A DNA stretch of 64,000 nucleotides from Kangiellaceae bacterium (GCA_965230525.1 OZ246008.1:903251-967250), one strand, 5' to 3'; counted from the stretch's first letter, positions 1,527 to 37,413 are shown. The notes: generated from the letters alone by a model not told the origin. Numbers and translations are program-made.

Positions 1527-3794
1527 ATGATTAAAAATACCCTCAAACAATCTGGGTGGTTCTATTTGTGGGTCGTTTTATCGATTGTTAGTTTATGGAT
1601 CACTGCTAATAACCGTTTTGAATACTTCGAAAGTCACAATTTAAAGCTACTCAGTCAAATGCGGCAAAGTGAAACGCTAGATCCGCATATCATTCGTTTG
1701 GTAATTGAGCAACAGTCTTCTGATGATATTGCATTCTATCAATCGCTGAAAAAGCAATTTCCGGTCGCCACCGTGATTCTTGCTAATGATTTAGCTCAGC
1801 GCACTCAGTTGATGATAAACCATCAAGTTGATTTATCTGATCGTGTGATAGCGTTATCCAAAAATACAATAACTAGCGACCCACTGACACAAGCCGATCT
1901 TGTTAGTCAATTTTTACCGACTGCAAATTCGTCACTCAGTTGGTCTACTTTGGCAAACTTAGAACTCGCAGTGCAATCCGTTCCATCGCTAAACTCAACC
2001 AGCGCTGTTTTTCGAAAGGACGATAAAATTTATCCTGGTTTATTGGTTGCGGCGTTAATTAAGTACCACAACGGCAGTGCTAAACTTTCACAAAACCTCA
2101 CCCACTTAACGCTGCAATTCGATTCGCAACGAACACAATTGTCTCAGTTAAATTTAGGACTCACCGGCAGGTTAATTAGTTTTGAAAAAAATGCGCCTTT
2201 ATTTGGTATCGAGCAATTGCAAGCAGCGATTGACGCTAAGTTTGACGGTCTTTTAATTGTTGATGATCTTTCAAGCTCTGTTGGAAAAAATCTATACAAT
2301 GCATTGCAGGGAATCCAAGCAAATGACTATTTAGTTGACAACCTATTTTGTTACTTGCTTATGTTTTTGGCTTGGGTTGTGATGAGCTTGATTATCTTTA
2401 AGTTTAATGTTCTTACCGTGGCTAGAAAAATCTTGCTAGTTTTTGCTTCAATAATTTCATTGTTGTTAATACAAATAGTGCTAAGTAAGTTTTCTATTTG
2501 GTTACCAATGACTAGTATTCTATTGTTTTCGATTTGTTCGATCCCTTTAATTTTTGGCGTTAACAAAGAAATGCAACAGAAGCAAAATATACACTCAAAT
2601 ATTAATAGTGCTGTGATCGAATCGGCGCTCTATCTGTTAAGAAATCAAAAAGCAAAAACATTATTAGATTTATTATCGAATTGTATTCCGACCAAAGCGC
2701 TCATCGATGTTTTGGTCGAGACTGCTGTGGAAGCAGAAACGCAACGCAACACCGCAGTCGCCTGCCAGCTTTATGAGTGGATTCTAACTCACGACAAAAA
2801 TCATTCTATTAGTAAACAGCGGTTGGCAGAAATTAACGCTGCCGATGAGCCCGCTGAATTAGACCAAACATTAGTGATCGAAAATGGCCAACAGTCCGTT
2901 GCTAAACCGACCAATACTAATGGCATTTTAGCCATCAAAAATTTTGGGCGATACCAAGTAGAAGGAATCATCGGGAAAGGCGCTATGGGGATGGTTTTTC
3001 AAGGTGTGGATCCCAAAATCAATCGGCATGTTGCGATTAAAACTTTACAGCTTAATGATGAACTAGATGATGAATCACTAAATGAAAGAAAGCAGCGGTT
3101 TTTTAGAGAAGCAGAAACTGCGGGTAATCTAAGTCATGCCAATATTGTTACTATCTACGATGTCGGCGAGCAGAAACACCCAAACTCAAACCAATCGCTG
3201 GGCTACATCGCAATGGATTTACTCACTGGCGCGCCGCTTTCAGAGTTTATTAAGGCGGATAAACTCCTTCCACCCCCGCTAGTCTATCAATTGATGATTC
3301 AAATGACTGACGCACTTGATTATGCGCATCGACAAAAAGTGATTCATCGAGATATTAAGCCTGCTAATATTATATTCGATGATGATTTACAACGAGGTAC
3401 CTTGACTGATTTTGGTATCGCTTATATGTCAGATCACAGTAAGACCAAAACCGGAACCATCATGGGTAGTCCCTATTACATGTCGCCCGAACAGGTTATG
3501 GGGCAAACCGTAGATGGACGATCTGATATTTTTAGCCTAGGTGTTACCTTCTATCAGTTGCTAAGTGGCCATCTTCCATTTAATGGAGAATCGATAGCCA
3601 CGGTCGCTTTTCACATTACCAAAACTAAGCACGAGTCAGTTCGAAACATGAACAAAAAACTCTATGCAAGTTCAACTAGAATTACTAATAAAGCGATGCA
3701 AAAAGATCCGGTTAAACGATACCAATCGATGCAAGAATTTCGTCAAGCATTAGTGAATGCACTTAAGAGGGACTACAAAAAGTCACCGCTATAA
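1527..3794 (+). CDS. Membrane Ser/Thr protein kinase (Hanks type) with N-terminal CHASE2-like sensor topology
   Basis: The C-terminal kinase domain carries GKGAMGMVFQG (P-loop), VAIK, HRDIKPANI, DFGIA and SPYYMSPE. The N-terminus has one TM helix, about 250 aa of predicted periplasmic sequence, then three TM helices (aa ~275-345). This is the CHASE2 layout. Confidence 0.9.
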   Translation: MIKNTLKQSGWFYLWVVLSIVSLWITANNRFEYFESHNLKLLSQMRQSETLDPHIIRLVIEQQSSDDIAFYQSLKKQFPVATVILANDLAQRTQLMINHQVDLSDRVIALSKNTITSDPLTQADLVSQFLPTANSSLSWSTLANLELAVQSVPSLNSTSAVFRKDDKIYPGLLVAALIKYHNGSAKLSQNLTHLTLQFDSQRTQLSQLNLGLTGRLISFEKNAPLFGIEQLQAAIDAKFDGLLIVDDLSSSVGKNLYNALQGIQANDYLVDNLFCYLLMFLAWVVMSLIIFKFNVLTVARKILLVFASIISLLLIQIVLSKFSIWLPMTSILLFSICSIPLIFGVNKEMQQKQNIHSNINSAVIESALYLLRNQKAKTLLDLLSNCIPTKALIDVLVETAVEAETQRNTAVACQLYEWILTHDKNHSISKQRLAEINAADEPAELDQTLVIENGQQSVAKPTNTNGILAIKNFGRYQVEGIIGKGAMGMVFQGVDPKINRHVAIKTLQLNDELDDESLNERKQRFFREAETAGNLSHANIVTIYDVGEQKHPNSNQSLGYIAMDLLTGAPLSEFIKADKLLPPPLVYQLMIQMTDALDYAHRQKVIHRDIKPANIIFDDDLQRGTLTDFGIAYMSDHSKTKTGTIMGSPYYMSPEQVMGQTVDGRSDIFSLGVTFYQLLSGHLPFNGESIATVAFHITKTKHESVRNMNKKLYASSTRITNKAMQKDPVKRYQSMQEFRQALVNALKRDYKKSPL

Positions 3795-29074: not shown

Positions 29075-30097
29075 TTGCTACAAATCAATAATCAAACACC
29101 GTTTAACGCTGAATTACACCCCTATGAAGACCTGCACGGTAGAGATTATGCAATTATCATCATTAAAGGCACCTTCAATCCCTGTGGTGACCATTTAGGA
29201 ATGACCCTTTGTGATGAGCAAGCGCCAATTCAACATGCTGATGAGTATTATGGTGAGCCGGGGCAATCCAGCATTAAATACCCCACAGATCTCGCTTTAG
29301 TTAAAAAATCCACCGATTTGATATTACTCGGGCACGGTTATGCTCCCGGTGGACGGGCCACCAATCAATTCGATGTTAGTTTATCGGCGGGTAATTTTCA
29401 GCATACCGTCAGAGTGTTTGGTAATCGCTTTTGGCAAAAAGAGGGTCTTACTTGGCAGCCTAGTCGGCCAGAAAGCCTACAAAAAATGCCGCTTACCTAT
29501 GAAAACGCCTTTGGAGGAAGTGATCCTCATGCTGATCCACAAGGCAGCGAAGCGTTCGAATATGATCCGTCTAATCCGATTGGCAAAGGTTTTATCCCTA
29601 AAAAAGCAAATCCTATCGAAGGATTGGCTTTGCCTAACCTCGAAAACCCAAATGATTTAATCGTCGATGAAGATAGCCAGCCAAAGCCCTTTGGGTTTGG
29701 AGCGATAGCTAGGGACTGGCAACCTCGGCTTACTTGGGCCGGAAGCTATGATGAAGCCTGGCAATCACAAAGAATGCCACTATTACCTTTGGACTTTGAC
29801 GCTCGTTTTTTCAATGCTGCCCATCCCAACTTATGCATCTCACCTGAACTTGTAGGTGATGAAGTGATGACGATCAAAAATGCTACTGAATCAGGCTTAC
29901 TTTCATTTCAGCTCCCTAATCAACAACTAATCGCCACCGCAAGTATGCGAGGACAACAAGCCGATTTTATAGCGAAACTCGATACGGTTGTCATTGAGCC
30001 CGACGAGAACCGAGTTATGTTGACCTGGAGAGCGGCTATCCCAATCAAACGCAAGTTTCTGTATTTAGACTCTGTCACCATTAAAAGGCGTCACTAA
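29075..30097 (+). CDS. DUF2169-domain protein (T6SS adaptor/chaperone family)
   Basis: Contains NNQTPFNAEL...DYAIIIIKGTF, DEYYGEPGQSSIKYPTDLALVK, MPLTYENAFGG, NPIGKGF, LPNLENP, PFGFGAI..W.PRLTWAGSYDEAWQSQRMPLLPLDFDARFFNAA. This is the conserved DUF2169 pattern. The start is TTG after AAGGA. Confidence 0.85.
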   Translation: MLQINNQTPFNAELHPYEDLHGRDYAIIIIKGTFNPCGDHLGMTLCDEQAPIQHADEYYGEPGQSSIKYPTDLALVKKSTDLILLGHGYAPGGRATNQFDVSLSAGNFQHTVRVFGNRFWQKEGLTWQPSRPESLQKMPLTYENAFGGSDPHADPQGSEAFEYDPSNPIGKGFIPKKANPIEGLALPNLENPNDLIVDEDSQPKPFGFGAIARDWQPRLTWAGSYDEAWQSQRMPLLPLDFDARFFNAAHPNLCISPELVGDEVMTIKNATESGLLSFQLPNQQLIATASMRGQQADFIAKLDTVVIEPDENRVMLTWRAAIPIKRKFLYLDSVTIKRRH

Positions 30098-30098
30098 A

Positions 30099-31187
30099 AT
30101 GACTCATGCTGAGACTGGAACAAATAACTCAATTGTGATTACCGCAATGGGAGCGGTTACGGCTGTGGGTGGCAATGTAGAGCAAAGTACAGCGGCAATC
30201 GCAGCTGGCATTACACCTTTTGTTGAGCACTGCTATTACCAATGTACCCCCGCGGACCCAGAATGGGACGAAGACTTACCCGCCTATGTTGCAGCTGCCC
30301 CGTTTGTTGAGTTTCATGTCGACAACCTAGAACGTTTTAATCAATTGATCATTCCCGCTTTAAAAGAGTTATTCGCACAAAGTCACATTAAAAGACAAGC
30401 GTTGTCTAAAACTGGGCTCTTGGTGGCGCTGCCAGAGGCTGAAAGTGGATTGCAAAAACTAGCACTTGACGATCTGTGGTTAACTGATGTTCGACGTCAC
30501 ATGGGGTTAGTTGGACTAAAAAATGCTCGCACTAATCGCGATGCTCATGTTGGTGTTTTTAGCGCGATAAACCAAGCCATGGAATCTTTAAAAAATGGGC
30601 AATTAGAGCAATGTATAGTGGGTGGCGTGGACAGTTACTTGCTGCAAAGTAGAATGGCCCATTTTGATAAGCTCTGGCGGTTAAAAAGTAGCCGAAATGT
30701 AGACGGGTTCATACCGGGCGAGGCCGCTACAATGTTAATGTTAGAGACCGAGCAGCATGCGCTTGCTCGAGGCGCTGAAATTTTAGCGGTAATTGGAAGT
30801 GTTGGCTTTGGTGTCGAACCTAATCACATTTACTCTGAGCGAGCGAGTAGCGGTAAAGGTTTGACTGACGCAATTCGACAAGCGCTTGCAGCCGATTCAA
30901 GTGATCAAAATTTTGCCATGATCGGCTGTGACCTTAACGGTGAGAGTTATGCAAGCCAAGAACTTGGGTTGATTGGTACACGATTAGGTGATCGGTTTGG
31001 CGCTGATACCGAAATTAGCCATCCCGCAGACAGTTGTGGTGATGTGGGTGCAGCTTCAGGCGGGTTATTGATCATCAATGCAATCGATCGAATTCAGCAA
31101 ACCGACACCAACAATCTATTATTGACCACTGCTAATGATGACGGTCGGCGCGGAGCGCTCATCATCAAAGCTCCTAGAAAGGCTTAA
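30099..31187 (+). CDS. Thiolase-fold, beta-ketoacyl-synthase-like protein lacking the Cys-His-His triad
   Basis: Colinear with KAS I/II: IVITAMGAVTAVGGNVEQSTAAIAAG, DGFIPGEAATMLMLETEQHALARGAEILAVI, DSCGDVGAASGGLL. The catalytic positions read ...RDAHVGVFSA... (no Cys), ...CDLNGES... and ...CGDVGAA... (no His). The ATG is 1 nt after the DUF2169 stop. Confidence 0.7.
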   Translation: MTHAETGTNNSIVITAMGAVTAVGGNVEQSTAAIAAGITPFVEHCYYQCTPADPEWDEDLPAYVAAAPFVEFHVDNLERFNQLIIPALKELFAQSHIKRQALSKTGLLVALPEAESGLQKLALDDLWLTDVRRHMGLVGLKNARTNRDAHVGVFSAINQAMESLKNGQLEQCIVGGVDSYLLQSRMAHFDKLWRLKSSRNVDGFIPGEAATMLMLETEQHALARGAEILAVIGSVGFGVEPNHIYSERASSGKGLTDAIRQALAADSSDQNFAMIGCDLNGESYASQELGLIGTRLGDRFGADTEISHPADSCGDVGAASGGLLIINAIDRIQQTDTNNLLLTTANDDGRRGALIIKAPRKA

Positions 31188-31234: not shown

Positions 31235-31705
31235 ATGGCTGCAACTATTAATGTAAATAATCGAACTGTTGTTCATAAATCCAGTGATGGGATTGTCACT
31301 GTTTTCCCTGATGTTTGTAAAACTCCGACTCCTGGAGGGCCGGTTCCTATCCCCTATCCCAATATTGCGATGTCTTCAGATACTGCTAAGGGGAGTAAGT
31401 CGGTCAAAATGGACGGCAACCCAATAATGCTCAAGGGATCCAATTTTAAAACCAGTACCGGCGATGAGCCAGGCTCCTTGAAAGGCGTTGTTAGTAGCAA
31501 AATTAAGGGTAAAGCGGAATTTGTTAATTATTCTTTTGATGTCAAAGTGGAAGGAAAAAACGTTCCGCGTTTAGCCGATATGATGATTCAAAATAAAGGT
31601 GGCGTTGCCAATACTGCCCCTATTCCAGAGGTTCAGCCACCTATTGTTGTGCCTCCGCCACCAAGTCCAGAAGAAAACCAAATAACCAAAATTGAGATTA
31701 TCTAA
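31235..31705 (+). CDS. DUF4150 (PAAR-like) protein with proline-rich C-terminal tail
   Basis: Contains FPDVCKTPTPGGPVPIPYPNIAMSSD..GSKSVKMDGNPIM..GSNFKTSTGDEPGS.KGVVSS...VKVEGKNVPRLADMMIQN, the DUF4150 signature. The tail is PIPEVQPPIVVPPPPSPEE. Confidence 0.85.
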   Translation: MAATINVNNRTVVHKSSDGIVTVFPDVCKTPTPGGPVPIPYPNIAMSSDTAKGSKSVKMDGNPIMLKGSNFKTSTGDEPGSLKGVVSSKIKGKAEFVNYSFDVKVEGKNVPRLADMMIQNKGGVANTAPIPEVQPPIVVPPPPSPEENQITKIEII

Positions 31706-31716
31706 AGGAGTAGAAC

Positions 31717-33207
31717 ATGGCATTGGTGCAATGGGTTAATTTGGACAAGCATAGTGACTATGCGGCTGATTCTGATATTGGAAGTATCGATCGATGTGGC
31801 GCGCTAGAAATAAAAACCGCGTTTGCTTCGGGCAGTGTGCCCCTCTCTTACAAAGTTAAAGTGTCCCCTTCGGGTTCAGATAACGTCACCTACACGACGG
31901 CAGAATTAGGACGCAATAGTAATTTCAAAATGACCAAAGGAGCGGCAGATTTAGGAACCCAATCCGAAGTGGTTATGAGTGATACTGTTAAACTTCCGGC
32001 TGCCGGTGGGAATAAATATAAACTTGAAGCAAAGGATGCGAACGGAAAGGTTGTCTCCAGTCAGGAAATAGAGGCCAAGCGAAAACTTTATTATCAGTTT
32101 ATGCACATGGAGGATTCTAACGGCAAAGTCACGCCCTATGCGCTTACTCAAATGGAAGGTCATTGTGCGAAGTATCATATTGTTTTAAGTAAAGCGGGTA
32201 CGGATAAAAAAATTCCGTTTCGCAAGTGCATCAACTCTGGTCCCGGTGGTAGGTTTACTCATGTTGGTTTTGCCGCGGACGTAAATTCTCAATACGATTT
32301 AACCGCGCCGCAAAAAAAGGTTGGCTGTGTTACGGCACTATCAAATTATATTGCCTCGTTTAAAAGCACAACTAAAACGCTCACTCATTCAATAGGTGGT
32401 CCGGCTAATCCGAAAATATCGATCACACCAAGTGTGGCAGCAGGCGCTGCTACTGCGGCAGGTATACCCGGAAAAATTACCTTAGCCGTTTTATCGGGTT
32501 ACGAGTTTTTATGGTACGGATTGGACGATGATGATGACCTGGCTAAAGTTTGGTTTATTGATGGAGCTGTGAGCTTTACTCCAAATACTTCTAGTTCTTC
32601 ACCTTCTGCTATGGCCGGTCAATCAATTCAAATTAGTCGTTCGGATGTCAGTATAGGTGGAAGCAAAAAACGAACTCATGGCGGTTATCAAGAGATAGAA
32701 GTAACCATCAATCCAGGATCTACTTTAGATAATATGATTTCGCAAACGAGTGGTACGCTAGATTTTGCTTTTGAGTTGAATCGAGTAAAAGGCTTTAGTG
32801 GTGGTTTTAGTTGGGGTGGTGCTGGATTTGCTTTAACGACTTGTTGTACTAAAGCATGGTTTGAAGATAAACAGCCATCTGCTAGTGACGTAATATGGAA
32901 TCACGAAGTAGGACATAGAATGGGTATGGTGGCATTTGGTGATAAGCCCAACGCTACTTACCCTAATCCGAAACTGCCAGATGCGCCGCCGCATTTGTAC
33001 GGTGAGAAACGTGGGGTTAATGATAAGGGGCATCAAGGTCCTCATTGCGAAGAAGGGGCTGTCACTTACAATGCAACCACAAATAGCTGGAGCGGCACGC
33101 CAGGTTGCGTGCTTTTTGGTGCGACCGGTACTTCAGCAGCCAGCTCGCCGCTCGATTATTGTAGCGACTGTACTCCGGTAGTCAGAAAATTAGATCTTTC
33201 TTTCTAA
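31717..33207 (+). CDS. Candidate cargo/effector: 496-aa protein with a single HExxH (HEVGH) motif and Cys-rich C-terminus
   Basis: AGGAG lies 6 nt upstream of the ATG, which is 11 nt after the PAAR-like stop. It contains WNHEVGHRMGM and a C-terminal 90 aa with 5 Cys (..GPHCEEG..PGCVLFG..DYCSDCTP..). I do not recognise the N-terminal ~380 aa. Confidence 0.55.
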   Translation: MALVQWVNLDKHSDYAADSDIGSIDRCGALEIKTAFASGSVPLSYKVKVSPSGSDNVTYTTAELGRNSNFKMTKGAADLGTQSEVVMSDTVKLPAAGGNKYKLEAKDANGKVVSSQEIEAKRKLYYQFMHMEDSNGKVTPYALTQMEGHCAKYHIVLSKAGTDKKIPFRKCINSGPGGRFTHVGFAADVNSQYDLTAPQKKVGCVTALSNYIASFKSTTKTLTHSIGGPANPKISITPSVAAGAATAAGIPGKITLAVLSGYEFLWYGLDDDDDLAKVWFIDGAVSFTPNTSSSSPSAMAGQSIQISRSDVSIGGSKKRTHGGYQEIEVTINPGSTLDNMISQTSGTLDFAFELNRVKGFSGGFSWGGAGFALTTCCTKAWFEDKQPSASDVIWNHEVGHRMGMVAFGDKPNATYPNPKLPDAPPHLYGEKRGVNDKGHQGPHCEEGAVTYNATTNSWSGTPGCVLFGATGTSAASSPLDYCSDCTPVVRKLDLSF

Positions 33208-33867
33208 ATGGAATTTAAGAAACATTTACCGATCATACTTTTAGCTCACTTATGCGTTATATTAATTTCGTGCAAAGCTAATACTTCCAACAAAGGAGAA
33301 AGCCTAATGGCGGACCAACTTTACCAAATACCTAAAGATTGTGATTTTAGTAAAGTGCTAAATGGAGACACCCATTCCAACGAATGTACTCCGATTCTCG
33401 ATAATAAATTCTTTAGCAAGTTTTCGGGAATTTTAATTAATGGCCCGGAGCAAGTGGTTTGGCCTAAAGATGGAAACCCTGAAGACTATCCAGTAGGGCC
33501 GTGGGGAACTTCCGAGGGACCATTCCGATTAATGCTTGCAGGGTTAGTTAGGACAGAATATAAAACCCTTGGTTTAAAGGGTGAGGCTTCGGAAGAGGTC
33601 TTGTTAGTTGCGGTTAATCAAAAAACGGCAAAAAGTTATTCAGGAAAAATGCCAAAGCCTGACGTCGATACTGCACCCGATTTTGATATGGGTATGGAAG
33701 AAATCCCGCTATCAGAAGAAGAGCAGAATAAACTAATTACCAGTTACTTTAATTTTGATCTCGTGCAAGATTTAGGTTTGCCGATTGCTAATGCCAGCTA
33801 CAATGTTTATGCAACACTCGGAGAAATGAAATCCAATTCAATCATTATTCACACCAAAGTGGAATGA
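33208..33867 (+). CDS. Island family A, copy 1: predicted lipoprotein (candidate immunity protein)
   Basis: The ATG directly abuts the upstream stop (TAAATG). It has the signal peptide plus lipobox MEFKKHLPIILLAHLCVILISC. It shares a conserved core with 34351..34911 and 35356..35949 (IP..CDFS......(E/Q)C(T/S)P, GILIN, GP(F/L)R(L/I)M(L/V)AG, (V/I)NQ(K/E)T, (Y/V)YA(T/V)LGE/A.KSN). Confidence 0.65.
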   Translation: MEFKKHLPIILLAHLCVILISCKANTSNKGESLMADQLYQIPKDCDFSKVLNGDTHSNECTPILDNKFFSKFSGILINGPEQVVWPKDGNPEDYPVGPWGTSEGPFRLMLAGLVRTEYKTLGLKGEASEEVLLVAVNQKTAKSYSGKMPKPDVDTAPDFDMGMEEIPLSEEEQNKLITSYFNFDLVQDLGLPIANASYNVYATLGEMKSNSIIIHTKVE

Positions 33868-33925
33868 TTGAAATTAGAGTTCTTAAATTTTTCGCTCAAT
33901 TATATGCTAAAAGGAACTTCGAGCC

Positions 33926-34300
33926 TTGAAAGAACATCAACAAAGTTCAAACAAAATCATTATCGAAGCTATATCGGCGATTAAAGCTGACCCCAATAAA
34001 ATAGTGATTCATGGAAAGTTTGATATCGAATATGAAGCTAGCGGTCTGTTGACTCGCGGCTCTGAAATCTTAAATCACATCATTCTCGTGGTGACTCGCT
34101 CAGGAAATTATCAATCTGTCACACCCTTTCAAGATGTTATTGCTTTTGAAGATGATGTCCAAGAAAATGATTCGGGCTGTAGTGGTGTTTTCAATATTGA
34201 TCTATTCAAAAAAATTCTCTTCGATGGGCCGGGTGACTATTACATCCTCTGTTCCATTGGTTCTGTTACTTCAAATATCTTGCACGTTAAACACAATTGA
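33926..34300 (+). CDS. Island family B, copy 1 (small all-beta-looking protein, no signal peptide)
   Basis: TTG start; the frame opens only at 33911. Clear paralog of 34939..35298 (HIILVVT, PF.D.I.FEDD.Q..(D/G).(S/G)CSG.F, DYYI(L/M)CSIG..TS.I). Confidence 0.55.
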   Translation: MKEHQQSSNKIIIEAISAIKADPNKIVIHGKFDIEYEASGLLTRGSEILNHIILVVTRSGNYQSVTPFQDVIAFEDDVQENDSGCSGVFNIDLFKKILFDGPGDYYILCSIGSVTSNILHVKHN

Positions 34301-34350
34301 TATTCAAGCAAGAATTTCGATTTATGCTTTACTAAGAGTAGTCGAAAAAT

Positions 34351-34911
34351 ATGCATAGTCGCCTTTATGAAATTCCAGAACAATGTGATTTCTCTACAGT
34401 TTGGAATAATACTGCTAACGCTAACGAATGCTCTCCAAAACTTACACCAGAATTCTTTAACCCTTTTCAAGGAATCTTAATTAATACTCCAATCACAGTG
34501 GAGCTAGATGGTAACTTAGACCTCAAAGACTTCATAGTAACACCTGCGGGTCATCGAGAAGGACCACTAAGAATCATGTTGGCAGGTTCACTTCAAGTAC
34601 CAGTCGGCACATTAAATAAAGACTGTGGATTGAATGAAAAAGTGTTGATAGTTGCTATCAATCAAAAAACTGCAGAAACGTTTAGTGGTTATATGAGTCT
34701 TTTCGGATTTAAAGTCGACCCCATTGAAATTCCGTTACCTGAAGGCGAAACAGAGGAAGATATCGCTAAAGGTGATGTTCGAGAGTTATTTAATGTTGAT
34801 TTAATAGAAAACCTAAAACTCCCAATTATGACAGCGGATTATACTGTTTACGCAGTTCTAGGCGAGTATAAGTCGAATGTGAGAGAGGTCAAAGTGCGAG
34901 TAAAGAAGTAG
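34351..34911 (+). CDS. Island family A, copy 2 (no signal peptide)
   Basis: ATG at 34351, with an in-frame stop 12 nt upstream. It is colinear with A1 from residue ~34 onward and is the most divergent of the three copies. Confidence 0.6.
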   Translation: MHSRLYEIPEQCDFSTVWNNTANANECSPKLTPEFFNPFQGILINTPITVELDGNLDLKDFIVTPAGHREGPLRIMLAGSLQVPVGTLNKDCGLNEKVLIVAINQKTAETFSGYMSLFGFKVDPIEIPLPEGETEEDIAKGDVRELFNVDLIENLKLPIMTADYTVYAVLGEYKSNVREVKVRVKK

Positions 34912-34938
34912 CCTCTTTAGTTACTGAGTCTAATAGTT

Positions 34939-35298
34939 ATGATTAAGAATAATTACTTTATAGCAATTGAAAATCCTTCAAAGACAAACAGTAAAGAAAC
35001 TTTGATGATTCAAGGACAATTCAGAGTTCCTTATCATCAATCTGGTATTACTGTGCAAGGTGCTGATATGCTAAAACACATAATATTGGTTGTCACAATG
35101 GGTGGTGCTCGTGCAGTCGTTCGCCCATTTAAGGACTATGTGATTTTTGAAGATGACATTCAAGACGATGGACAAAGTTGTAGTGGCTATTTTAAATTCA
35201 ATGCGTTTGAAAAGATATCGTTTACCGAGGGTGATCACTATTACATAATGTGTTCGATAGGAACCTTCACTTCTGATATTGTTAAAGTCTCAGTTTAA
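34939..35298 (+). CDS. Island family B, copy 2
   Basis: ATG start. Roughly half of its positions are identical to B1 by eye. Confidence 0.6.
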   Translation: MIKNNYFIAIENPSKTNSKETLMIQGQFRVPYHQSGITVQGADMLKHIILVVTMGGARAVVRPFKDYVIFEDDIQDDGQSCSGYFKFNAFEKISFTEGDHYYIMCSIGTFTSDIVKVSV

Positions 35299-35355
35299 TA
35301 CCTTGTTGCTTTTACAATCAAAACTCTACAAATAAAAATATTTTTATTCTGCGCT

Positions 35356-35949
35356 TTGTTTGCGTCAAAGGCATCAGTAGAGAAGCCGATGAAAAATGAA
35401 CATTATAAAATTCCTGAAAACTGTGATTTTAGTAAAATTTACAATGCGAATTCAGAAGAAAATCAATGCTCACCAAAACTAAACGACAAGTTCTTTAGTG
35501 AATTTTCTGGAATTCTAATTAATGCACCCAAAATAGTAGAATGGCCAAAGAATGTTCATTTAAAGGATTATTATCCAAGGCCATCAGGCACATCTTATGG
35601 GCCGCTAAGATTGATGGTCGCAGGTTTGATCCGGACGCAATATAAAACTCTTGGTCTAAATGGTGATACTAGCGAAGCCGTAGCATTGGTGGCTATTAAC
35701 CAAGAGACCAAAGCTATACTCTCAGCAAGAATGCCTAGACCAGATTTTGATTTACCACCAGATTTTGAAAACGAAAGTCCTGAAAGAACTCGAAATGAAG
35801 CCGAATTAAACGCACTAATTACAAATCACTTTAATTTTGATTTAGTTCATGACTTAGGATTACCGATAGCGGAAGCTAATTATCAGGTTTATGCTACTCT
35901 TGGAGCAATGAAGTCAAATGTGGTGGAAGTTAAAACTGTTATCAAATAA
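35356..35949 (+). CDS. Island family A, copy 3 (start uncertain: TTG 35356 or ATG 35389)
   Basis: Closest paralog of A1 (e.g. FFS.FSGILIN.P..V.WPK, RTxYKTLGL.G..SE.V.LVA(V/I)NQ, FNFDLV.DLGLPIA.A.Y.VYATLG.MKSN). Confidence 0.6.
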   Translation: MFASKASVEKPMKNEHYKIPENCDFSKIYNANSEENQCSPKLNDKFFSEFSGILINAPKIVEWPKNVHLKDYYPRPSGTSYGPLRLMVAGLIRTQYKTLGLNGDTSEAVALVAINQETKAILSARMPRPDFDLPPDFENESPERTRNEAELNALITNHFNFDLVHDLGLPIAEANYQVYATLGAMKSNVVEVKTVIK

Positions 35950-35967
35950 CCTTTATTTGCGTCTTCT

Positions 35968-36486
35968 TTAGAACTTCTTTAACCTTATTTTCGAATCTTT
36001 CACATTGATACTATTCGAAGTGAACTCAAGATACTTTGCAGTTAATTCGATATTTCCAAGCACATCTTCCAGAGCATCTTTAAAATAAACATCATCTACA
36101 GCTATGCTAAATTTCTCGGTTACTATTTGATCACATGGCTTTTGAGAGTATTCATCATATACTTGATTACCATCCCAAGAAATAGACAAATGATTATCAA
36201 TTGATTCATACTCTTGTCCACTTTCAAGATTCTTAATAGTAAACATAATGGTTTCTGGAAATTGAGACCAAATGGCATATTGACTGCCGCAATTAACAAA
36301 AACTGAAAAACTTCCTTCAATCCTCAGTTTATTCTTATCATTTGCTGCATCATGGCTTAATTGAATTCTTAGTCCTTGAGTTTGGTTCATTCTTTCCTTT
36401 CCATTTACTTCACTAGTGTATGAGTATATTAGTGTCAGTAGAGCTAACGGTAGAACCAACGACGTTTTGTCTCTAAAATGATTCAT
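35968..36486 (-). CDS. Secreted small protein, possible divergent family-B relative (convergent with the array)
   Basis: ATG at 36486 gives the signal peptide MNHFRDKTSLVLPLALLTLIYSYT. There is weak colinearity with B1/B2 (LRIEGSFSV ~ IVIHGKFDI; GNIELTAKYLEFTSNSINVK ~ GDYYILCSIGSVTSNILHVK). Confidence 0.45.
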   Translation of the reverse strand: MNHFRDKTSLVLPLALLTLIYSYTSEVNGKERMNQTQGLRIQLSHDAANDKNKLRIEGSFSVFVNCGSQYAIWSQFPETIMFTIKNLESGQEYESIDNHLSISWDGNQVYDEYSQKPCDQIVTEKFSIAVDDVYFKDALEDVLGNIELTAKYLEFTSNSINVKDSKIRLKKF

Positions 36487-36594
36487 TGTTTCTGAATCCT
36501 CAAAACTCATTTATTAACCCATTAAGCGCTATGGCGACTTGATTTTCAATTATATGTCACAATTAAAGTTATCTCGACTTTAACGGGAACTTCT

Positions 36595-37413
36595 ATGTCT
36601 CCACTTATAATTATCGGCTTGGCCGTTGTGGGTTTGATTGGCTATATACTTTTTAAGCCAAGATGGATTGAATCTAAACGCAATCAAATCAAATCGCAGC
36701 CCTTTCCTAAAGAGTGGCGATCCATTCTTAAGCGAAACGTTCCCTTTTTCTATTCAATGCCCGCAGATTTGCAACTTCAACTTAAGCAACACGTTTTAGT
36801 GTTCTTGCAAGAAAAGACGTTCTACGGATTTGAAGGGATTGAAATAAACGATGAAATTAGAGTCACAATCGCAGCACAGGCCTGTTTGTTACTACTTAAT
36901 CGAAAAACTAATTATTACCCCAAGCTGAAATCGATTTACGTTTATCCTGCCGCGTTTATCACTCGACATGCCACTCATGATTCTGCTGGCGTGTTACAGA
37001 ATCAAGCAAGAGTTTTAAGTGGTGAGTCTTGGGAATTAGGTAAAGTGATACTTTCTTGGAAAGACAGCCAGCATGGTGCACAAGTTTTTAACGATGGGCA
37101 CAACGTGGTGATTCACGAATTTGCTCATCAGTTAGATCAAGAGACCGGGATCGCTAACGGCGCGCCCTTCTTGAAACATAAAAACAAACAGTGTTGGTCA
37201 CAGGTTCTATCGAAAGAGTTTGAAGAGTTACAGCGTAAGGCGCAACGAGGCGAGGATTCATTGCTTGATCATTATGGCGCAACAAACCCCGCAGAATTCT
37301 TCGCGGTTGCTAGTGAAGTGTTTTTTGAGCGGCCACAAGCCATGCAGCGACAGCATTCTGCGTTGTACCAGCAATTACAAGGGTTTTATCATATAAACCC
37401 TGCTATTTGGTAA
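36595..37413 (+). CDS. mtfA: M90 zinc metallopeptidase MtfA-like
   Basis: Has an N-terminal TM segment, a HEFAHQLD zinc motif and the ...NPAEFFAVASEVFFERP motif typical of MtfA/DUF980. Confidence 0.8.
   Translation: MSPLIIIGLAVVGLIGYILFKPRWIESKRNQIKSQPFPKEWRSILKRNVPFFYSMPADLQLQLKQHVLVFLQEKTFYGFEGIEINDEIRVTIAAQACLLLLNRKTNYYPKLKSIYVYPAAFITRHATHDSAGVLQNQARVLSGESWELGKVILSWKDSQHGAQVFNDGHNVVIHEFAHQLDQETGIANGAPFLKHKNKQCWSQVLSKEFEELQRKAQRGEDSLLDHYGATNPAEFFAVASEVFFERPQAMQRQHSALYQQLQGFYHINPAIW

Follow-up and report, generated by a model that had tools for sequence, protein, structure and literature searches.

The 64,000-nucleotide stretch of a Kangiellaceae bacterium genome analysed here (GCA_965230525.1, OZ246008.1:903251-967250; the window) contained five small open reading frames (ORFs) at positions 33208 to 35949, in which two protein families, named A and B, alternated as A-B-A-B-A directly downstream of a 496-aa candidate effector of a type VI secretion system (T6SS). 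A textbook T6SS locus carries one effector and one immunity protein, and to our knowledge loci with a pair of immunity proteins, or in which a periplasmic immunity protein plays a cytosolic part, have been described only recently, each in a single strain. The array raised the question of what the two families do, whether they act together, and how their alternation arose. The best explanation, held with about even confidence, was that A would be an exported immunity protein and B its cytoplasmic paralogue, both acting on the same effector, with A1-B1 as the cognate pair and A2-B2-A3 as orphans whose export has been partly lost.

The A-B-A-B-A array

The ORF listing confirmed the strict alternation of five co-oriented ORFs reported in the first-pass annotation of this sequence, all on the + strand and with a period of about 1.04 kb. 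A1 (33208-33867, 219 aa) is the candidate cognate immunity gene, B1 (33926-34300, 124 aa) encodes a predicted signal-less beta-sandwich that is a paralogue of the A core, A2 (34351-34911, 186 aa) is an orphan A copy without a signal peptide, B2 (34939-35298, 119 aa) is an orphan B copy, and A3 (35356-35949, 197 aa from a TTG and 186 aa from the ATG at 35389) is an orphan A copy with no B after it. The gaps between A1 and B1, B1 and A2, and B2 and A3 were 58, 50, and 57 nt, respectively. A DNA repeat finder placed the A copies in register, with spacings of 1044 and 1038 nt.

The A copies were 41-54% identical to one another. A3 (54%) was closer to A1 than A2 was (41%), as the earlier annotation had noted, and the conserved A motifs listed in the earlier annotation were all present in the alignment of the three copies. 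B1 and B2 both contained HIILVVT, FEDD, CSG.F, and YYI(L/M)CSIG; these shared motifs stood, while the earlier estimate that about half of the B residues are identical was lowered to a computed identity of 41%. Hidden Markov models (HMMs) of the two families scored the A copies with E-values of 1e-76 to 1e-94 and the B copies with 1e-51 to 1e-55, and the similarity among the array copies is far beyond chance. Neither A nor B had a match in Pfam or NCBIfam at E<=1, save for a chance-level Pfam match on A3 (E 0.035, well below the cut-off), and sequence-profile searches of the PDB with A and B produced no sequence relative of a solved structure. The Rfam scan of the window showed no RNA families, and promoter and terminator counts over 28.8-36.7 kb were equal to the shuffled expectation.

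Association of A and B with the effector

A set of 28 related loci was gathered and their ORFs were classified by HMMs; the profile scan with the three window A copies produced 2 loci among genome contigs and the metagenome scan produced 11. The only homologues that carried a name came from Colwellia echini and Gilvimarinus. In all 17 distinct loci with a full-length effector, the next gene was a co-oriented A; B was found downstream of this A, on its own or joined to it in a fusion. In the window the ATG of A1 directly abuts the TAA of the effector. B was adjacent or fused to A in about 13 of the 17 loci; in L005, L010, L015, and L024 additional A copies or A fragments came before it. The simple order effector-A-B was found in L001, L011, L013, L014, L019, L020, L022, and L025. 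L008 showed effector-A-B-A-B with the second B truncated, L006 showed effector-A-B-A-B followed further on by a frameshifted A and a B, and L003 showed effector-A-B-PAAR-effector-A-B-A-B. The order was effector-A-A-B in L010 and L015, effector-A-(A fragments)-B in L024, and effector-A-A-A-A-A-B in L005. A was thus multiplied without extra B in L005, L010, and L015. A lone A homologue with an intact lipobox, without effector and without B, was found in L016 (8383-13282) among genes for ankyrin-repeat, Sel1-repeat, and small unknown proteins, an arrangement that resembles an orphan-immunity islet. The A of L009 was a truncated pseudogene. On the question raised earlier, whether the two families are always paired and always beside an HExxH protein, each of the 17 effector loci carried both, yet the unit was not always one A plus one B: two or five A copies preceded a single B in some loci, and A stood alone elsewhere.

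The identity matrices of A and of B were correlated (r=0.74, 19 adjacent pairs), and the A2-B2 pair of the window was co-orthologous with the second pair of L006 (69% for A2 and 53% for B2, the best among the pairs compared). An exhaustive HMM search with the B profile gave 138 representative clusters, nearly all stand-alone proteins of 110-150 aa, and A gave 128 hits. Two independent A-B fusions were found. The first, P0245 (L026, 40-1062), combined a lipoprotein signal, A, and B in one polypeptide. The second, P0360 (L027, 3402-4340, and L028, 3409-4347; three contigs), combined the A core and B without a signal and without the Cys-pair module of A; its gene, from a GC-rich organism, immediately followed genes for a PAAR-like protein and a distant homologue of the effector. 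Such joining in a single polypeptide is a classic sign of joint action. The conserved order, the co-inheritance, and the two independent fusions argue that A and B act together, which agrees with the first-pass proposal of a two-gene unit.

Mirror-tree correlations drawn from 16 non-independent loci (effector-A-B triples) showed that the divergence of A followed that of the C-terminal domain of the effector (r=0.89; partial r=0.55 with the N-terminal part accounted for), while the corresponding values for B were r=0.62 and partial r=0.10. A tracks the toxin domain, and B does so weakly.

Homology of A and B

A and B had been described at first as two unrecognised families, and profile-profile alignment showed that they are related. 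With a B profile of 84 sequences, hhalign aligned A with B at 97.2% probability (E 2.9e-11, 128 columns), and with a B profile of 18 sequences the probability was 83%. The strands and helices of independent AlphaFold2 (AF2) models (pLDDT 88.9 for A and 83.1 for B) agreed in order and register with this alignment, and HMM cross-hits between A and B were seen in the fusion proteins. The profiles and the predicted models thus show B to be a homologue of the beta-sandwich at the C-terminus of A, and the array is built of one ancient fold, split into an exported and a signal-less form. The A protein is made up of three parts: a signal peptide, a short module carrying an invariant Cys45/Cys60 pair, and the B-like beta-sandwich. 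Foldseek searches of the PDB with A gave only weak matches to immunoglobulin (Ig) V-set domains, with low template-modelling (TM) scores.

Localisation signals of A and B

A1 contained the lipobox LISC with Cys22, and it was the only A copy of the window that kept an N-terminal lipoprotein signal. Most A homologues had a hydrophobic N-terminus, usually with a lipobox, whereas none of over 50 B homologues inspected had a signal peptide. The possibility that B is exported and its start was mis-called was rejected: the A1-B1 gap is short, the ORF listing puts the B1 start at the first start codon following an in-frame stop, and the N-terminus was hydrophobic in none of the B homologues.

In-frame stop codons upstream of A2 leave it without a signal peptide. 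Upstream of A3, the in-frame stretch 35302-35355 aligned to homologous signal peptides and was without a start codon, and its lipobox Cys was changed to Ser. The A2 and A3 ORFs were intact from the conserved Met. A perfect 18-bp AT-rich palindrome, AATAAAAATATTTTTATT, was located at 35331-35348, in the B2-A3 spacer and within what remains of the degenerate A3 signal peptide; it may have arisen by chance in AT-rich DNA.

Origin of the A2-B2-A3 block

In blastn the window matched L011, L001, and L025 collinearly as far as 34304, 4 nt beyond B1, and again from 35967, at the neighbouring gene C. This break in collinearity identified A2-B2-A3 as a 1.66-kb insertion (34305..35966, + strand) that is absent from the three collinear loci. 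The G+C content over 34000-37000, which includes the inserted block and gene C, was 35.5-36.7%, against about 41-42% window-wide; for the block itself it was about 36%, against about 41%.

The first-pass annotation had held that the cassette was amplified, and local amplification was not supported. The array copies shared only about 65% DNA identity, the nearest relatives of each lay in other genomes and not within the array, and a recent tandem duplication was rejected on these grounds. The closest relative of A2 was the second A of L006 (69%); that of B2 was P0126 (59%) and, among loci with DNA context, the second B of L006 (52-53%). Synonymous divergence (dS) was saturated or undefined in every paralogue and orthologue pair, and this saturation marks the extra block as ancient. 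The diversification of the copies had also been read as an arms-race signature; the comparison of nonsynonymous divergence (dN) with dS gave no verdict on this or on positive selection, dS being saturated throughout, and the loss of export signals in A2 and A3 fits decay at least equally well.

The likeliest origin is turnover of whole effector-A-B modules with effector loss, rather than local amplification. Orphan cassettes in L005 and L006 were still preceded by effector 3' fragments, and frameshifted or truncated A and B copies were found in L002, L005, L006, L008, L009, and L024. In the window no effector 3' remnants were found in the B1-A2 or B2-A3 gaps. In L003 (7391-14626), and also in L002 and L004, the whole PAAR-like/effector/A/B unit occurred in tandem, followed by an effector-less third A-B pair, and in L002 the second effector was cut to 245 aa; these tandem units look like snapshots of module turnover.

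Turnover of this kind would also allow that A2, B2, and A3 are non-functional relics, that only A1 (perhaps with B1) matters, and that the alternation is a footprint of the process. This is possible, though on the unlikely side. It draws on the missing signal of A2 and the degenerate one of A3, on weak ribosome-binding sequences ahead of A2 and B2, on the absence of the block from close relatives, and on the broken copies in the six loci named above. However, the three ORFs were full length from the conserved Met and kept every family-invariant residue, and the divergence between A2 and its L006 orthologue (dN 0.20 with dS saturated) gave no sign of long-term relaxed constraint.

A possible internal start in A

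A1 has a conserved internal ATG at 33307, with AAAGGAGA seven bases upstream. A start-capable codon about seven codons before IPxxCDF, directly past the region of the signal peptide and linker, was present in all 32 distinct A genes (ATG 27, GTG 4, and TTG 1), and the four Val codons at this position, from three independent lineages, were all GTG. Met or Val was found at the position in 71 of the 78 homologues with an N-terminal extension, and NCBI annotates all three A copies of the window as the 186-aa form. Shine-Dalgarno (SD)-like sequence was enriched at the internal start relative to the gene body (p=4e-9). As evidence for an internal ribosome-binding site this signal was rejected, since it vanished under synonymous recoding (Fisher p=0.64); it is explained by a Gly/Glu/Lys-rich linker and not by nucleotide-level selection. 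The evidence for a cytosolic A isoform from the internal start is mixed, and such an isoform is possible. The idea of an internal start matters because in Enterobacter cloacae the lipoprotein immunity protein Tli acts in the periplasm and a cytosolic pool of it, presumably from downstream start codons, is needed to activate or export Tle (bioRxiv 10.1101/2023.03.28.534661).

These findings bear on a second alternative, in which A and B form an obligate two-domain inhibitor, a heterodimer of homologous beta-sandwiches in one compartment, where the internal-start 186-aa A would pair with B and the lipoprotein form would be a second pool. The two fusions unite both domains, the domains are homologous, the start codon is kept at the same position in every distinct A gene (with GTG for each Val), the 186-aa form is the annotated one, and A2 and A3 remain intact from that Met despite the loss of their signals; precedents exist in the cytosolic pool of Tli and in the joint requirement for Tli1 and Tli2 described below. 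The recoding control, however, gave the ribosome-binding site no nucleotide-level support, and 7 of the 78 extended homologues had neither Met nor Val at the position. A multiplies without B in L005, L010, and L015 and stands alone in L016, and the covariation of B with the toxin domain is weak. The heterodimer is, on balance, a doubtful explanation.

The conserved loop of B

F74 and D77 of the FEDD(V/I) loop were at least 90% conserved in 84 diverse B sequences, and in the AF2 model they are predicted to lie in a loop or turn. AprI/Inh is a small beta-rich periplasmic inhibitor of serralysins. B resembles AprI/Inh and the astacin prosegment, in which the Asp of FXGDI caps the catalytic zinc as an 'aspartate switch' (PMC9848320), in being a small beta-rich protein or segment encoded with a candidate zinc peptidase, and its F-x-x-D-(V/I) loop matches the spacing of the astacin segment. 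Foldseek and PDB profile searches detected no homology of A or B to metzincin inhibitors or prosegments, and the likeness amounts to four residues and is a lead only. In Foldseek the B model also matched the AsaP1 pro-enzyme, weakly and without significance (TMq 0.52, E 0.06).

That B would instead be an effector-handling factor (chaperone, activator, or prodomain acting in trans) required by the producer alone, to hold the metzincin-like effector latent and ready for loading, and not for immunity, with orphan B copies as hitch-hikers, is improbable: its constant lack of a signal and hence predicted cytoplasmic location, its weak covariation with the toxin domain, the single B per five A in L005, the near-invariant F74 and D77 with their astacin-like spacing, the AsaP1 match, and the precedent of cytosolic Tli are in its favour, but the B2 ORF is intact and retains all family invariants although its cassette has no effector, the L026 fusion would take B to the periplasm behind the lipoprotein signal of A, the four-residue FxxD likeness is accompanied by a second FxxD (FNxDL) in both A and B, and the AsaP1 match falls short of significance.

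Upstream delivery module and candidate effector

Four genes on the + strand preceded the array. The first encodes a DUF2169 (TvpA-type) accessory protein (29075..30097; PF09937, E 1e-92), the second a thiolase-like or pseudo-ketoacyl-synthase accessory protein (30099..31187; PF00109, E 8e-10; NF004798, E 3e-67, below the cut-off), the third a stand-alone PAAR-like (DUF4150/PIPY) spike-tip protein of 156 aa (31235..31705; PF13665 Tox-PAAR-like, E 1.6e-42), and the fourth the 496-aa cargo effector (31717..33207) with a C-terminal HExxH domain (H396, E397, H400, G403, and M404, then GH.GPHC, CVMFG, and CxxC). A DUF2169 gene was also found ahead of the effector in related loci. The order DUF2169, thiolase-like, DUF4150 (PIPY) has been named 'synteny type A', a type defined by the thiolase-like gene (PMC11883445), and this accessory cluster, also called Tvp, loads DUF4150 (PIPY) proteins onto VgrG (PMC11883445; PMC13373197). 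The window showed the same order, with PF09937, PF00109/NF004798, and PF13665 in sequence, and its effector is linked to spike and adaptor genes through the DUF2169 and PAAR-like genes upstream. By gene content and order, the locus has the genomic hallmarks of a T6SS effector-immunity module with orphan immunity genes.

Hcp, VgrG, and DUF6484 genes, and also an ARM/HEAT-like (armadillo-like) gene, were found upstream in the related contigs L002, L005, L006, L008, and L022. No VgrG, DUF6484, or armadillo-like gene was adjacent to the module in the window, where DUF4440-like and patatin genes lay upstream instead, in synteny with L001. Ten of the larger ORFs of the window scanned against Pfam were housekeeping genes. 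With these three genes missing nearby and the surroundings housekeeping, the window copy is an auxiliary module.

The effector had no match in Pfam or NCBIfam at E<=1. Its family comprised 89 unnamed sequence clusters (clustered at 90% identity), whose range extended from gammaproteobacteria of marine origin to myxobacteria. In 36 diverse homologues H396, E397, H400, G403, M404, H439, H443, and four Cys were invariant, and the HExxH motif was kept in distant lineages. The effector profile gave a weak match to the metzincins adamalysin and myroilysin around HExxHxxGM (E 0.006-0.17). The extended metzincin motif HExxHxxGxxH/D was not found; the effector has HExxHxxGMxxxG(D/N), with no His or Asp at +11. 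From these features we infer that the 496-aa protein is a putative zinc-peptidase cargo effector. Residues 1-340 (31717-32740) were also conserved, with invariant Q5, N8, L9, Y59, E63, R66, N67, G97, G98, and others. This N-terminal two-thirds matched no known T6SS delivery domain and may be a new PIPY- or VgrG-binding trafficking domain.

Comparison with known systems

As in the Tle/Tli, Tae/Tai, and PldB/Tli5b systems and in Rhs and contact-dependent inhibition (CDI) orphan modules, the candidate immunity gene comes immediately downstream of the effector, in the same orientation, with extra copies after it. Linkage to VgrG, PAAR-like, or adaptor genes and the effector 3' fragments beside orphans in L005 and L006 are further features in common with orphan-immunity arrays. 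In contrast to those arrays, the repeat unit here pairs diverged paralogues whose localisation signals differ, the families of the effector, A, and B are undescribed, and there are no effector fragments between the window copies.

A, as a candidate lipoprotein immunity protein, is similar to Tli, while the cytosolic role of Tli may here fall to B, to the internal start of A, or to both. The effectors also differ, Tle being a phospholipase and the present one a putative metallopeptidase, and searches of Pfam, NCBIfam, and PDB profiles showed no sequence relationship of A or B to Tli families.

Dual immunity has been described as rare, the cases being Tde5 with Tdi5a and Tdi5b (PMC13392607) and Tle1-AH with Tli1 and Tli2 (PMC7245790). 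Tli1 and Tli2 are homologous, both are required, and both belong to DUF2931, a superfamily of which some members are annotated as outer-membrane lipoproteins (PMC7245790); the two Tde5 immunity proteins are presumably both in the cytoplasm, the site of its DNA target. The present locus likewise has two candidate immunity genes after one effector, and it differs in that one partner carries an export signal and the other does not, and in that the pairing is family-wide and sometimes fused.

Compared with the clusters of Pseudomonas aeruginosa Tse7 and Proteus mirabilis PefE, in which the PIPY domain is part of the effector (PMC11883445), the gene order was the same, whereas here PIPY stands as a 156-aa protein of its own, and the cargo effector that follows is likewise a distinct protein. 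The window copy also differs from DUF2169 synteny type A clusters by the lack of nearby VgrG, DUF6484, and ARM genes, all three of which are present in related loci. What is new is that the effector, A, and B are three families without annotation, and that A and B form a diverged paralogue pair with opposite localisation signals, fused in two lineages.

Neighbouring genes

Gene C (35968-36510, - strand) encodes a 180-aa protein with a hydrophobic N-terminus and is convergent with A3, 18 nt away. It aligned with A in hhalign (73%, E 3e-5) and weakly with B, and is probably a distant third member of the A/B fold family, as far as the profiles indicate. C was linked to the module in L001, L011, L008, and L024, and it was the fastest-evolving module gene (dN 0.37 against L011). 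Against NCBIfam it gave a weak match to a c-type lysozyme inhibitor (E 0.004, far below the cut-off). As in A, a Met is found just past its hydrophobic segment.

A second HExxH protein past the array (36595-37413) was MtfA/Peptidase_M90-like (NF011939, E 3e-39, below the cut-off); its gene is part of the chromosomal flank conserved in L001 and L011, and a link to the T6SS module is therefore improbable. Far upstream, 1527-3794 encodes a 755-aa protein with a C-terminal eukaryotic-type Ser/Thr kinase domain (PF00069, E 4e-48), which is unrelated to the array and whose N-terminal part of about 470 aa had no Pfam match at E<=1e-5.

Proposed roles of A and B

The best explanation takes the genes in their order, DUF2169, thiolase-like, PAAR-like (PIPY), the 496-aa HExxH cargo effector, A, and B, as an auxiliary T6SS effector module. 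A would be the specific immunity protein, exported (A1 as a lipoprotein), binding the zinc-peptidase-like C-terminal domain of the effector and neutralising it in the periplasm. B, as an ancient paralogue of the beta-sandwich core of A without an export signal, would act on the same effector from the cytoplasmic side, where it may hold freshly synthesised effector in an inactive or export-competent state until loading, or may be a second, less specific immunity protein. A1 and B1 would be the cognate pair. A2, B2, and A3 would be orphan cassettes inserted between B1 and C that came from other effector-A-B modules after effector loss, and the A2 and A3 proteins, without export signals, may be decaying or may work only in the cytoplasm.

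Several observations weigh against this division of roles. A periplasmic A and a cytoplasmic B cannot form a complex unless a cytosolic form of A is made, and the SD-like signal that might have marked its start did not survive recoding. The fusions argue that the A and B domains work in one shared compartment, which would be the periplasm for L026 and the cytoplasm for L027. A3 has no B, and L005 has five A copies to one B. The mirror-tree values that set A apart from B come from loci that are not independent. The four invariant Cys of the effector could be periplasmic disulfides or a structural zinc site. Foldseek searches of the PDB with A and B returned no informative structural neighbour, only generic Ig-like sandwiches with low TM scores.

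A more specific form of the proposal, put forward only tentatively and with low expectation, is compartment-split immunity from one duplicated Ig-like domain. The lipoprotein A would guard the periplasm, and B would be a trans-acting prodomain that, perhaps with a cytosolic A isoform, caps the zinc of the metzincin-like effector, possibly via the FxxD loop, until the effector is loaded through PIPY and VgrG. If this were true, self-protection of the producer and maturation of the effector would be built into one conserved two-gene unit, in some cases fused, throughout the family.

The effector-A-B family offers a family-wide natural system for asking why an immunity protein that protects the periplasm might need a cytoplasmic counterpart, and it also bears on the restraint of zinc-peptidase effectors before export and on the turnover of immunity cassettes.

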